Origin: Escherichia phage vB_EcoM_PHB13 | Sequence record: MK573636 | Reading direction: 5' to 3' (one strand) | DNA: 64,000 bases | Part shown: in pieces, positions 15,254-38,252 of the stretch | Position numbering within the stretch: position 1 is the first letter of the stretch | Layout of the letters: the number at the start of each line of letters is the position of its first letter | Translations under genes and position numbers: made by a program | Notes under the pieces: model-generated | Told to the model about the DNA's origin: nothing | The model's input: only the letters and a program-made list of their open reading frames with translations | Database searches by the model: none

Positions 15254-15739
15254 ATGAATATTGATGTAAAATTAGAAAGTAAAGATTTGATTTATGCTGC
15301 GTGTGTATCTGCCGTAGATGGCATCATAGAACGCCGTAAGCGACGTAATTTTGCTGATGACCTAGATTCCATCGTCTCAATCAATTTAGGCCGTCAAACA
15401 GGGCATACAGACGCTACAATAAAGTTATATGACCATTATACGCGAAAAGGCTATAGTGTCTTTATCGTTTCAACGACGAGGGAACATGCCAAAACGATCC
15501 GAGAACGCGGTCGCGGTGAAAATGTAAATATTTCAAATGTAGATTGTACGTCGATCCGAACTTTCCTGAATCCGATCACATGGCGAGGTCGTAGTCTTGA
15601 CAAAACAATTTTTATCCTAGATACTACCATGCGCGGATTTACTGACAGCGTATTGCAGTTTTTAGAAGTAAATCGACTTAGTGTTGGGATGGGTAATGTA
15701 GAAGACCAACCTATTTTCATTGGCTTAGGTATCAACTAA
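15254..15739 (+). CDS. hypothetical protein
   Basis: 161 aa ORF; no confident domain. Confidence 0.4.
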   Translation: MNIDVKLESKDLIYAACVSAVDGIIERRKRRNFADDLDSIVSINLGRQTGHTDATIKLYDHYTRKGYSVFIVSTTREHAKTIRERGRGENVNISNVDCTSIRTFLNPITWRGRSLDKTIFILDTTMRGFTDSVLQFLEVNRLSVGMGNVEDQPIFIGLGIN

Positions 15740-15874
15740 TGAAAAATAAAGATAGCGTAGCTCGTCGATTCCGTGCTACAATTAAAAAGAATCGTAAAGT
15801 CCAACCTGATAAACTCTATGGTGTTTTGGTTGGTAAAATTAATGACGAACGTCCTGATCTATAAGAGGTGAATT

Positions 15875-16291
15875 ATGGAATTTAAAGCAATTCAAATCAT
15901 GAAAGGTGAGCATAAAGGTACTATTATCGGTGGACACTTCGCGCCTATGATTCTGGTATCCGAACCGAAAGCACTGATCGGCGCTAAAGTAATTGTTAGT
16001 AAGACTTTCGCAGAAGACCATGCGATCACCGCAGAAGACGTCGATTCTCTGGCACTGCACACAACTAGCTTCCGTCCTGTTATTGTAGATAATGGTGCTC
16101 CTGTTGTCGAAGGTGGTCAGCATTTGAATGTTAACGTATTGTTACGAGAAATGTTGCTGGACGCTGTTGAACATCCTGAGAAGTACCCGCAGCTTACAAT
16201 TCGCGTTTCTGGTTACGCAGTGCGCTTCAATAGTCTGACTCCAGACCAGCAACGTGATGTTATCGCTCGTACCTTTACCGAATCTCTCTAA
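15875..16291 (+). CDS. autonomous glycyl radical cofactor (GrcA/YfiD-like)
   Basis: 138 aa; C-terminal ~60 aa ([59 protein letters not shown]) is nearly identical to the glycyl-radical domain of enterobacterial GrcA/PFL, including the RVSGY motif. Confidence 0.85.
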
Positions 16292-16302
16292 TTTTTCATC
16301 AA

Positions 16303-16334
16303 GCCAATCCGAAAAGGGTTGGCTTTTTCGTTTT
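16303..16334 (+). terminator. intrinsic terminator after the grcA-like gene
   Basis: GCCAATCCGAAAAGGGTTGGC hairpin plus T-tract. Confidence 0.6.
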
Positions 16335-16377
16335 ATGATGATATGATGCAATCTCTTAATCAACTGAGGGTTTAATT

Positions 16378-17076
16378 ATGCATACAATGGTTAAAATGGT
16401 CTTCGGATCTCACTTGTACGGCCTTGATACTGAAAATTCCGATAAAGATTATCGTGGTATCTTTGTTCCGACTGCGAAAGAAATTATCTTAGGATCTATG
16501 AAAGAACACTATGACCAAAGCACTAGCGGTCAAGGTATCAAGAACACCAAAGACGATATTGACGTTAATGTGTTCAGTCTAAAACGGTTTATCAATCTGG
16601 CATGTAAAGGCGATATTGGCGCTATTGACATGGTGCACGCGCCTAGTAACATGTTGATTGAATCCTCCAGAGAATGGGAATACATCCGAACACATCGCGA
16701 TAAATTCTATCATGTTGGTATGTGGGGTTTGTCTGGTTATCTCAAAAAGCAGGTAGCCAAATCTGAAAAGTATTTCAGTAACTGGAAAGATCTTTCTCAT
16801 GCTCTGCGTGTTGGTTATCAGCTACTTGAAATCTATCAGACAGGTGATCTACAATTCCCGCTCGCGCGACGTTCTTCTATTTTAGCGTGTAAATTGGGTG
16901 AGAGAACCTTTGATAATGTGCGGGAAGAATTGAAAGATCTCTACGAGCGTGTTAAACTCGCGCGTGAAGAGGCAAAGAAAAACGGTATGCCGGAAGAACC
17001 AGATGTTGACTTTTGGAAAGATTTATTAGAATATATTCATCTGACCGTTGTTCTGGAACACTATACCCGTGGTTAG
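16378..17076 (+). CDS. predicted nucleotidyltransferase (Pol-beta superfamily)
   Basis: 232 aa with N-terminal GSxxxGxDxxxSDxD motif (GSHLYGLDTENSDKDYRGIF), the nucleotidyltransferase-fold signature. Confidence 0.5.
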   Translation: MHTMVKMVFGSHLYGLDTENSDKDYRGIFVPTAKEIILGSMKEHYDQSTSGQGIKNTKDDIDVNVFSLKRFINLACKGDIGAIDMVHAPSNMLIESSREWEYIRTHRDKFYHVGMWGLSGYLKKQVAKSEKYFSNWKDLSHALRVGYQLLEIYQTGDLQFPLARRSSILACKLGERTFDNVREELKDLYERVKLAREEAKKNGMPEEPDVDFWKDLLEYIHLTVVLEHYTRG

Positions 17077-17931: not shown

Positions 17932-18354
17932 ATGGAAACAATTAACGTACATGTTCGCCGTAGTAAGCTGCGTAGATTCTTCGAAACCGAAATGCGCAAA
18001 ACCAATGCGCAGATCAAAGAAAAGTGCTTGAATGATGGTTACGGTGAGTATATTTTCATTCGCTTTAGTCCGCATATGATCGACCGTCTAACCGATCGTC
18101 ATATCGATGAACATAAGACAATGGAACTATTCAATAAGGTAGAAACTCGTTTGCCGGAGATCTTCGACTTCCTGAGAATGGAAGACCGACCTAATCGATT
18201 AGAAATTACTGACGGTAACATGTGGATCGGAATGACAGTAGATCTAATCGAAGAGGGTAAACCGTATCACGGTCTATGCTGCCGAATGATTATAGAGAAT
18301 CCAAAACGACTTGCGGGTAAAATGTCGGCTGTTGTTTTGAGGGTAGACCAATAA
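17932..18354 (+). CDS. hypothetical protein; possible RegB-like endoribonuclease by position and size
   Basis: 141 aa from the ATG at 17932 (METINVHVRRSKLRRFFETEMRK...RLEITDGNMW...). Located between the e-equivalent region and tk, where T4 carries regB (153 aa). Assignment is by synteny only. Confidence 0.3.
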   Translation: METINVHVRRSKLRRFFETEMRKTNAQIKEKCLNDGYGEYIFIRFSPHMIDRLTDRHIDEHKTMELFNKVETRLPEIFDFLRMEDRPNRLEITDGNMWIGMTVDLIEEGKPYHGLCCRMIIENPKRLAGKMSAVVLRVDQ

Positions 18355-34480: not shown

Positions 34481-36343
34481 ATGGAAAAACTAATCAAAGA
34501 CATTACAGAGATCGCAACGGGTAAAGAAAACGAAGTAAGCAAAGAGAACGCGAACAAAGACGCGCGAACATTCCCGACACGTCGAGATCTGATTGCTGGT
34601 GCTGTGTCTAAACAGATTGCTAAAACCGTGTTACCTGAGCACATCTATAAAGCGCATGTAGACGGTGACATTCATTATCATGATATGGATTATGCACCCG
34701 CTATGCCGTTTACTAACTGCTGTCTTGTTAATCTCAAAGACATGTTAGAGAATGGTTTTAAATTGGGTAGCGCACAAATCGAAAGTCCGAAATCAATCGG
34801 CGTTGCTTGTGCTGTAACCGCTCAAATTATCGCACAGGTGGCAAGTCATCAATATGGCGGGACCACAATCGCAAACATCGACCAGGTGTTAGCGCCGTAT
34901 GTTAAGAAAACATATCATAAACACCTTGCTGATGCCGAAGCCTACGGAATCAAAGCTGATACTCTCTATGCACAAGAGAAAACAGAAAAAGAAACGTTAG
35001 ACGGATATCAGGCGTTGGAATATGAGATCAACACTTTGTTCTCTACCAACGGTCAAACACCTTTTGTGACTTTAACCTTTGGTATGGGTACTAGCTGGGA
35101 AGAAAAACTGATTCAGAAAGCGATCCTGAAAGTTCGAACTAAAGGTTTAGGTAAAGACGGTATAACTCCGGTGTTTCCTAAGCTGGTGATGTTCTTAGAA
35201 GAAGGATTAAACCTTAAACCGGAAGATCCGAACTACGACATTAAGCAACTTGCATTGGAATGTTCTAGTAAGCGTCTTTACCCTGATTATATCTCTGCGA
35301 AGAATAACCGTAGCATCACTGGATCTAGTGTTCCGGTTAGCCCGATGGGTTGTCGTAGCTTCCTGGGTGTGTGGCATAATGATAAAGGCGAGGAAGTATT
35401 AGACGGACGTAATAACTTAGGTGTTGTGACTCTGAATCTTCCGCGTATTGCCCTTATTGCCGCTCGTCGTGCTGGTAAAGCGTCTGTAATGCGCAGAATT
35501 GAGCTATTCGAACAAGAGCTAGCTAATCGTATGCCTATTTGCTTTGATGCGCTCATGAGTCGCGTAGACGCTTTAAAAGGGGCTAAAGCCAATGTTGCTC
35601 CGGTGCTGTATACAGAAGGTGCATTTTTCCGTATTCATCAAAACGATGAAATTTTGGAAGTGTTGAAAGATGGTCGCGCTAGTATCTCTCTTGGGTATAT
35701 TGGTTTACATGAGGTATTGAGCGTCCTGTTTGGTGTTCATCCGTTTGATTCGGAAGATGCGCAGCGATACGGTAAACATATTCTTAAGATCTTGCGTCAT
35801 TATACTGAAAAATGGAAGGATGAAACCGGACTTGGGTTTAGTCTTTACGGTACGCCAGCCGAGAGCCTTTGCTATCGATTTAATCGACTGGATCGAGAGC
35901 AATTTGGTATTGTTAAGGGTGCTACCGATAAAGACTGGTACACCAACTCATTCCACCTTGACGTAGACCGGAAAGTCACACCATTTGAGAAAATCGACTT
36001 TGAGAAAGATTATCACTGGCTGGCGTCCGGTGGCATGATCTCTTATGTTGAGTTCCCAGACATGAAAAACAACCTGAAAGGTCTTGAAACTGTAGTAGAC
36101 TATGCAATGGATAAATTGCACTACTTCGGTGTTAATACTCCTTCTGATGTATGTCATGTATGCGGATCTAATAAGGAAATGAGAGCGACCGAGTCTGGTT
36201 TTGTTTGCCCTGATTGCGGCAATGACAATCTGGAAAAGATGAATGTTATCCGTCGCGTTAGTGGATATCTTGGATCTGTTGATCTGCGTCCATTCAACCA
36301 CGGGAAACACTCCGAGATGGTAAACCGCGTTAAGCACATGTAA
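34481..36343 (+). CDS. nrdD: anaerobic ribonucleoside-triphosphate reductase NrdD
   Basis: 620 aa; class III RNR size with C-terminal zinc ribbon (CHVCG...CPDCG) and glycyl-radical region (RRVSGYLGS). Uninterrupted reading frame, no intron. Confidence 0.9.
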   Translation: MEKLIKDITEIATGKENEVSKENANKDARTFPTRRDLIAGAVSKQIAKTVLPEHIYKAHVDGDIHYHDMDYAPAMPFTNCCLVNLKDMLENGFKLGSAQIESPKSIGVACAVTAQIIAQVASHQYGGTTIANIDQVLAPYVKKTYHKHLADAEAYGIKADTLYAQEKTEKETLDGYQALEYEINTLFSTNGQTPFVTLTFGMGTSWEEKLIQKAILKVRTKGLGKDGITPVFPKLVMFLEEGLNLKPEDPNYDIKQLALECSSKRLYPDYISAKNNRSITGSSVPVSPMGCRSFLGVWHNDKGEEVLDGRNNLGVVTLNLPRIALIAARRAGKASVMRRIELFEQELANRMPICFDALMSRVDALKGAKANVAPVLYTEGAFFRIHQNDEILEVLKDGRASISLGYIGLHEVLSVLFGVHPFDSEDAQRYGKHILKILRHYTEKWKDETGLGFSLYGTPAESLCYRFNRLDREQFGIVKGATDKDWYTNSFHLDVDRKVTPFEKIDFEKDYHWLASGGMISYVEFPDMKNNLKGLETVVDYAMDKLHYFGVNTPSDVCHVCGSNKEMRATESGFVCPDCGNDNLEKMNVIRRVSGYLGSVDLRPFNHGKHSEMVNRVKHM

Positions 36344-37606: not shown

Positions 37607-37759
37607 ATGTGGACTTTACTGATTTGGGAAACTGAAAACGCACAAGTAGAAATCCGTGAATACGAATACCTAAGCCCAGCTTATCTATTAGCATCTCGCG
37701 GTGGTTACTATAAAGCGCAGATTGTAAACGAGTTCGGGGTAATTGAATATGAGTTCTGA
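37607..37759 (+). CDS. small hypothetical protein (50 aa)
   Basis: ATG at consensus distance from the cassette SD; the ORF-track start at 37532 lies in the promoter. Confidence 0.4.
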   Translation: MWTLLIWETENAQVEIREYEYLSPAYLLASRGGYYKAQIVNEFGVIEYEF

Positions 37760-38252
37760 TACATACGGCAAACTACGCTATGCCGATATTAAAGATTGTG
37801 ATATGGTTAACGGTGAGGGAGTGAGAGTCTCCCTTTACGTTACCGGATGTTCACACGCATGTGATGGTTGCTTTAATGCTAGCCTACTCAATCCTAAGAA
37901 CGGGGAACCATTCACCGATGATACAATGGGATTGATTCTGGATCTGCTTAGACCTGATTTTATTCAGGGGCTAACATTCTTAGGTGGCGATCCACTGTAT
38001 AAACGCAATTTAAAGGGTGTACAGCGGATCATCGATGAAGTAAAATCATGGATGCCAAATAAAGATATTTGGCTATGGTCTGGTTATACCCTTGACCAAT
38101 TGAATGATGAGCAAAGAAAAATTGTAGAATCAGTTGACATGTTCATCGATGGGCGTTATATTAAAGATATGCCAACGAAGAAGCCGTGGCGGGGGTCTGA
38201 CAATCAAGTACAATACAAGATTGTTAATAGTATTCCAGTGAAAATTATTTGA
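37743..38252 (+). CDS. nrdG: anaerobic RNR activating protein NrdG (radical SAM)
   Basis: 169 aa with radical-SAM Cx3Cx2C cluster motif (GCSHACDGC) and NrdG size; T4 order nrdD-nrdG. Confidence 0.8.
   Translation: MNMSSDTYGKLRYADIKDCDMVNGEGVRVSLYVTGCSHACDGCFNASLLNPKNGEPFTDDTMGLILDLLRPDFIQGLTFLGGDPLYKRNLKGVQRIIDEVKSWMPNKDIWLWSGYTLDQLNDEQRKIVESVDMFIDGRYIKDMPTKKPWRGSDNQVQYKIVNSIPVKII

Follow-up and report, generated by a model that had tools for sequence, protein, structure and literature searches.

A GrcA/YfiD-type glycyl-radical protein encoded by vs.6 of an RB49-like Escherichia phage, a probable spare part for host pyruvate formate-lyase

The product of the gene vs.6 of Escherichia phage vB_EcoM_PHB13 (sequence record MK573636) is very likely a phage-borne spare part of the GrcA/YfiD type for the pyruvate formate-lyase (PFL) of the host, and the Krischvirus ortholog of T4 Vs.6, as judged by its likeness to the characterized proteins of this kind. 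Our analysis covered a window of 64,000 nucleotides of this record, to which all positions refer unless stated otherwise, and the evidence it provided lies in homology and orthology, in the conserved motif, in purifying selection and in the gene's old age. What the gene does in T4, the family to which it belongs and the label it bears in close relatives had all been established before, so that the finding is right but already known and the current understanding is unchanged by these results. A literature search for phage-specific work on GrcA yielded nothing beyond Wagner et al. 2001.

The coding sequence (15875..16291, + strand) comprises 138 codons and a stop, from ATG to TAA, as given by the ORF list; PHROG 1209 and the annotation of phage RB49 identify it as vs.6. 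A preliminary description of this DNA had placed a GrcA/YfiD homolog here, and both the extent of the ORF and the identity of the product were borne out. The gene falls into a phage-specific N-terminal half (residues 1-76, 15875..16102, + strand) and a C-terminal glycyl-radical domain (residues 77-138, 16103..16288, + strand), delimited with PF01228, the alignments to GrcA and PflB, and Foldseek. Read from the sequence, a Shine-Dalgarno-like AAGAGGTG (15863..15870, + strand) lies 4 nt 5' of the ATG and overlaps the stop codon of a preceding 41-aa ORF. An intrinsic-terminator-like hairpin was found on the other side of the gene in a terminator scan (16301..16335, + strand; a 10-bp stem with a 5-nt loop, then a T-rich tail). 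It starts 10 nt 3' of the vs.6 stop, has a folding energy of -16.4 kcal/mol (z=-3.5, RNA fold) and is also kept in phage JK32 and in the metagenomic contig L100. By its sequence context vs.6 seems to be the end of one transcription unit and nrdC.11 the start of another.

The spacer between vs.6 and nrdC.11 (16292..16377, + strand) measures 86 bp and represents an 'empty site' relative to nine relatives that carry an HNH endonuclease gene (see below). The gene nrdC.11 itself (16378-17076) matches the Pfam RlaP nucleotidyltransferase family. Just 5' of it, and overlapping the tail of the vs.6 terminator, we observed a sigma-70-like promoter match (16319-16347; TTGGCT, a 17-nt spacer and TATGAT, with an upstream TG). 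On the 5' side, the 41-aa ORF (15739-15864), which is basic, is packed tightly between a vs.8-like ORF and vs.6, with a 1-base overlap with the stop codon of the former and its own end inside the ribosome-binding site of the latter. It gave no Pfam match, and conserved, annotated copies of it are present in RB49, JK32 and L100. The label vs.8 of the ORF at 15254..15739 was taken only from the RB49 annotation; tblastn of T4 Vs.8 gave no match to this ORF at E<=1e-3.

The window derives from a Krischvirus (RB49-like) phage, the 2.5 kb around vs.6 being 96-97% identical to E. coli phages of this group, and the same gene is annotated as vs.6 in RB49. PHROG 1209 covered the product over its full length, the N-terminal half of the phage type included (E=7.3e-51; residues 3-138 matched positions 1-121 of the 121-position profile). 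When the proteins of T4 were run against the window with tblastn, collinear matches were obtained for vs.6 (15884-16288), regB (17938-18345), vs.1, tk.4 and tk, which puts the gene at the place in the vs/regB/tk early region that is expected for this orthologous group. The gene is the syntenic ortholog of T4 vs.6 (Y06I), which occupies the same place upstream of regB-vs.1-tk.4-tk, a position that is conserved across genera of the Straboviridae. T4 Vs.6 was 58% identical to the window protein over residues 2-120, and T4-type records showed about 60% identity over 98% of the length. The two proteins agree in 54 of 62 residues of the radical domain and in 25 of 58 positions (43%) of the N-terminal half, where they have the signature KA.QI..G.HKGTI ... 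A+.IVSKTF.ED. in common; the window protein is longer (138 aa versus 120 aa in T4), with about 18 residues inserted in this half.

We found a homolog encoded in about 1580 phage records, among them most of the T4-like genera as well as T5-like and some jumbo phages. The labels for the gene across public phage genomes are inconsistent (e.g. hypothetical protein, pyruvate formate-lyase, acetyltransferase and 2-ketobutyrate formate-lyase), and neighbouring calls in phage records are even labelled 'ribonucleotide reductase subunit' or 'thioredoxin'. Several close relatives carry the annotation "autonomous glycyl radical cofactor".

The relation to the glycyl-radical proteins of the host was clear, and well above what chance would give, at the level of family, structure and sequence. 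The vs.6 product matched Pfam Gly_radical (PF01228; E=1.6e-16, 61.2 bits against a cut-off of 22.2, residues 78-119), the NMR structure of E. coli YfiD/GrcA (6owr, E=1.9e-32) and structures of PFL (E of about 5e-27). It is thus a small stand-alone protein of 138 aa, within the range of about 120-140 aa that is expected for spare-part proteins with PF01228 at the C-terminus, and the 700-residue catalytic barrel of PflB and TdcE is absent from it. When the last 62 residues were compared without gaps and anchored at the end, 56 were identical to E. coli K-12 GrcA (55 of the last 60), 58 to the variant of GrcA that Salmonella, Kosakonia and Pseudocitrobacter have, and 50 each to PflB and TdcE. Residues 77-138 duplicate the C-terminus of PFL (residues 698-759) in sequence as well as in fold, i.e. 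the segment that a spare part is thought to replace. The near-identity of the C-terminal 60 residues to the GrcA/PFL domain, suggested before from inspection by eye, was accordingly confirmed by alignment, and the peptide quoted in its support corresponds to residues 110-138.

The motif RVSGYAV (residues 110-116, 16202..16222, + strand), recognized from the sequence and from the alignments to GrcA and PFL, is found in exactly this form in E. coli GrcA. The predicted radical site is Gly113 (codon GGT, 16211-16213, + strand), which aligns with Gly734 of PFL and Gly102 of GrcA, and R110, S112, G113, Y114 and A115 were invariant among 75 homologs. At the diagnostic positions P123, R127, A131 and E136-S137-L138 the phage protein has the residues of GrcA and not those of PflB. 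A chimera of GrcA and PflB was considered on account of the PflB-like stretch REMLLDA and rejected, since LLDAVEH is the usual GrcA variant of Salmonella, Kosakonia and Pseudocitrobacter and only Met93 remains as a PflB-like residue. The NCBIfam equivalog model for GrcA (TIGR04365) was not matched above its cut-off of 170 bits by the vs.6 product (131.9 bits), whereas E. coli GrcA passed (234 bits). The validated T4 Vs.6 protein also stayed below the cut-off (151.1 bits), which means that the model delimits bacterial GrcA and not the phage subfamily; the shortfall does not count against the function.

E. coli GrcA and the phage protein have the same architecture, with a variable N-terminal half followed by a PFL-type glycyl-radical domain. 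The N-terminal half was indeed divergent, as had been noted before: its 76 residues agreed with GrcA in 19 of 63 aligned columns (about 30%), although homology was recognisable from about residue 37 onward. In an AlphaFold model built on the 75 homologs (mean pLDDT 79), the C-terminal domain had YfiD (6owr) and PFL (2pfl, 1cm5) as best Foldseek matches, and the N-terminal half was predicted as a small four-stranded domain with short strands and block-mean pLDDT values of about 59-87. The phage half is thus predicted to be rich in beta structure, whereas a disordered N-terminus has been reported for YfiD. Foldseek gave no significant neighbour for the fold of this half (only KOW-like matches, with E of about 0.5), a word-indexed search for it in other architectures gave just one member of the family, and phmmer against 1.84 billion representatives gave the family itself and one short, probably spurious match. 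In YfiD, efficient binding to cleaved PFL as well as activation depend on residues 1-60, and catalysis does not (PMC8683613). By analogy with these residues, the phage N-terminal half is presumably a module that helps docking onto cleaved PFL; given its divergence and the additional 18 or so residues compared with T4, docking of the vs.6 product could differ from that of GrcA and T4 Vs.6.

The function is best understood from the two relatives that were studied biochemically. According to the summary of Wagner et al. 2001 (pmid 11444864) in PMC8683613, PFL activase was shown to introduce a glycyl radical into both T4 Y06I and E. coli YfiD. Both proteins then form a complex with oxygen-cleaved PFL by which activity is restored, again as this work (BBRC 285:456) is related in PMC8683613. 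These two are the only experimentally validated spare-part proteins (PMC8683613; PMC13450708). The role in maintaining glycyl-radical enzymes that had been proposed for the gene is therefore supported by way of its T4 ortholog, and sequence similarity points to host PFL, possibly TdcE, as the likely client and not to the NrdD of the phage. That the vs.6 product is itself activated by PflA and reconstitutes cleaved PFL we infer from these relatives; as for E. coli GrcA, the expected activase would be PflA and the expected client cleaved PflB. A benefit to the phage in vivo is likewise something we infer.

The proposed course of events would be as follows. Oxygen would destroy the Gly734 radical of active host PFL, with the chain being cut at this position, and the 138-aa phage protein would bind the cleaved enzyme, its N-terminal half aiding in docking and its C-terminal 62 residues standing in for the lost tail. 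The host activase PflA would then place a new radical on Gly113 within RVSGYAV, and PFL activity would be regained without re-synthesis of a protein of 760 aa. The need for such a protein in the phage may lie in the shutoff of host gene expression by T4-type phages, after which the host would be unable to replace PflB or to induce grcA, so that neither PflB nor host GrcA could be renewed. With PFL kept running, the production of acetyl-CoA and ATP would be preserved, and also that of formate, the reductant of class III ribonucleotide reductases of the E. coli type.

Two other roles of the protein at the level of host PFL were considered. In one, the vs.6 product serves other or additional clients or states, for instance TdcE (2-ketobutyrate formate-lyase), to the tail of which it shows as many identities as to that of PflB (50/62), or it provides a radical domain for full-length inactive PflB. 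We judge this unlikely; we have no counter-argument to it, and it would extend the main explanation and not contradict it. In the other, the protein acts as a decoy that titrates the host PFL activase or blocks cleaved PFL, so that PFL is switched off and pyruvate is redirected. A mimic of the radical domain could in principle compete for PflA, and the N-terminal half is unlike that of GrcA, but the T4 ortholog restores activity and does not inhibit (PMC8683613), and the strict conservation of the catalytic glycine and of the complete RVSGYAV activase substrate motif would be unnecessary in a pure blocker, which makes a decoy very improbable.

The preliminary description had also pointed to NrdD and NrdG in this phage, and both were found. 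NrdD, the anaerobic class III ribonucleotide reductase, is encoded at 34481..36343 (+ strand; Pfam NRDD, E=1.8e-175) and is very close to T4 NrdD (structure 1h78, E=5e-255), and NrdG, its radical-SAM activase, at 37743..38252 (+ strand; Pfam Fer4_12, E=2.4e-43, and Radical_SAM), in synteny with nrdG of RB49. Their presence in the same window raises the alternative that the vs.6 product is a spare part for phage NrdD, activated by phage NrdG and directly protecting anaerobic dNTP synthesis, the more so as oxygen cleaves all glycyl-radical enzymes in the same way and reviewers have speculated about spare parts for further enzymes (PMC8683613). A replacement tail must reproduce the C-terminal domain of its client, however, and the vs.6 product has only RVSGY in common with the NrdD of the window (BLASTP E=1.7), whereas its last 62 residues show 81-90% identity to PflB, TdcE and GrcA. 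The C-terminal domain consequently does not duplicate the glycyl-radical domain of NrdD, and a copy of the NrdD tail is out of the question; moreover, T4 Y06I works with PFL and PFL activase (PMC8683613). We regard this alternative as extremely improbable. RVSGY is located at the radical site of NrdD (residues 592-596, 36254-36268), as it is in PFL and GrcA, and the rest of NrdD is unlike the vs.6 product.

With host PFL as the preferred client, the link of NrdD and NrdG to vs.6 is real as a co-occurrence and otherwise probably indirect. A formate-dependent class III ribonucleotide reductase has been suggested as a consumer of formate made by PFL (PMC13450708), and Mulliez et al. 1995 is cited there for formate as the class III reductant. 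By analogy, phage NrdD probably uses formate produced by PFL, which would feed NrdD and NrdG under anaerobic or microaerobic conditions, e.g. in the gut.

The acquisition of the gene from an enterobacterial host, as proposed earlier, is essentially upheld, with one qualification: the family is ultimately host-like, and the sequence comparisons date the acquisition in this phage as old and not recent. For the 186 nt of the conserved domain, DNA identity to grcA, pflB and tdcE of E. coli was 73%, with third codon positions identical in only 44-48% of cases (44% for grcA). The best blastn match among 5,426 E. coli genomes reached 75.7% over 185 nt, to pflB, and the best DNA identity among 83 bacterial sequences (80 loci taken from a genome collection at species level, with grcA, pflB and tdcE of E. 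coli added) was 78.5%. The GC content at third codon positions (GC3) was 0.368 in the N-terminal and 0.419 in the C-terminal half, both within the phage range of 0.29-0.45 obtained from 20 long ORFs of the window, and no discontinuity in codon usage or GC between the halves was found. The comparison of codon usage between the halves that had been suggested as a check thus showed no jump in the window; a jump in GC3 occurs in T4 instead (0.19 versus 0.40). With DNA identity of at most 78.5% and phage-like composition in both halves, a recent capture from the host was rejected.

These data also bear on the possibility that vs.6 stems from the recent capture of a piece of host grcA or pflB and has no selected function in the phage. 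The high amino-acid identity to the host proteins would fit such an origin, as would the fact that the 3' half of the T4 gene is truly near-verbatim host DNA, but this possibility is already refuted by the DNA-level comparison (identity of only 73-78.5%, phage-like composition in both halves). It is further opposed by the conserved position across Straboviridae genera and by the excess of synonymous over non-synonymous codon differences (11 against 2) between the vs.6 genes of the window and RB49, and we attach next to no probability to it. The low DNA identity in combination with the phage-like GC3 implies that the identity at the protein level reflects functional constraint, i.e. selection, and the contrast between the C- and N-terminal halves reflects the constraint that the tail must fit both the PFL and the PFL activase of the host. 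The comparisons at the DNA level chiefly show that a protein closely matching the product of a host gene is no sure sign of a recent transfer.

T4 itself is a case of recent host-to-phage conversion. Its vs.6 gene (NC_000866 7558-7920, minus strand) is a chimera at the DNA level, in which the part from the EGG codons to the stop is identical to E. coli K-12 grcA (positions 67-450 of the extracted locus) at 178 of 186 nt (95.7%, against 73% and a phage-like composition for vs.6 of the window) and at 59 of 62 third positions, and identity collapses at once on both sides. GC3 rises from 0.19 to 0.40 between the halves, and the similarity of the 3' half falls with host phylogeny (95-96% for Escherichia, 89% for Citrobacter). 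The sequence comparison indicates a recent gene conversion of the 3' half by host grcA, so that a recent transfer, which the earlier wording might suggest, applies to T4 and not to the window.

Exchange of the radical domain was also apparent among the Krischviruses. We compared the two halves in alignments (window residues 1-69 versus 77-138) and found mean pairwise identities of 0.62 for the N-terminal and 0.93 for the C-terminal half in bacterial GrcA, and of 0.53 and 0.83 in T4-like proteins. In Krischvirus-type proteins the pattern was inverted (0.92 and 0.74), with an N-terminal half that is nearly invariant and a radical domain that is mosaic, although the residues of the radical motif are still invariant. 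For instance, vs.6 of JK32 was at least 97% identical to the gene of the window for about 205 nt and then about 63%, and vs.6 of contig L100 was window-like over nt 1-330 and JK32-like over nt 331-414. This divergent 'type B' 3' half was present in exactly nine phage records, and a gene for a 197-aa NUMOD4/HNH endonuclease occurred in these nine and no others, in each case about 50 nt downstream of vs.6, but the nine records may be one clade and the association does not represent nine independent events. The region of vs.6 and the HNH gene spans 1201-2258 in JK32 and 1501-2559 in L100 (positions in the extracted loci); in the window and in RB49 the endonuclease gene is absent and there is only the 86-bp spacer. 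For the type B radical domain that the JK32-like phages carry, no donor was found, the nearest sequences outside Krischvirus showing at most about 80% protein identity.

Free-standing homing endonucleases are familiar from the T-even phages, where the seg and mob genes take part in 'intronless homing'. By analogy, the type B tail together with the HNH gene looks like the co-conversion tracts of an intronless-homing endonuclease. The likeness to seg and mob lies in the HNH gene adjoining vs.6 in the nine Krischviruses, the divergent 3' half of vs.6 and the variable switch points, and it does not apply to the window, from which the endonuclease is absent. That the radical-domain half of vs.6 is an exchangeable cassette in T4-like phages is a possible but doubtful reading of these sequences. 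The exchange patterns themselves are well founded in the sequences, but that they have a functional or adaptive meaning, and are not a by-product of recombination and of the spread of selfish elements, is speculative. If the cassette reading is true, the window would carry an endonuclease-free and possibly cleavage-sensitive allele, and the allele types might differ in the host enzyme or activase that they serve; we regard the cassette-like exchange as a modestly interesting side result.

Many close relatives still have this gene as "hypothetical protein" or, wrongly, as "pyruvate formate-lyase", and vs.6 / phage autonomous glycyl radical cofactor (GrcA-like) would be a fitting name. For the biology of the phage, the gene would mean that a host fermentation enzyme is kept alive during infection with a patch of 14 kDa, and that the formate production of the host may plausibly be coupled to anaerobic nucleotide reduction by the phage, which would be relevant to growth in the gut.
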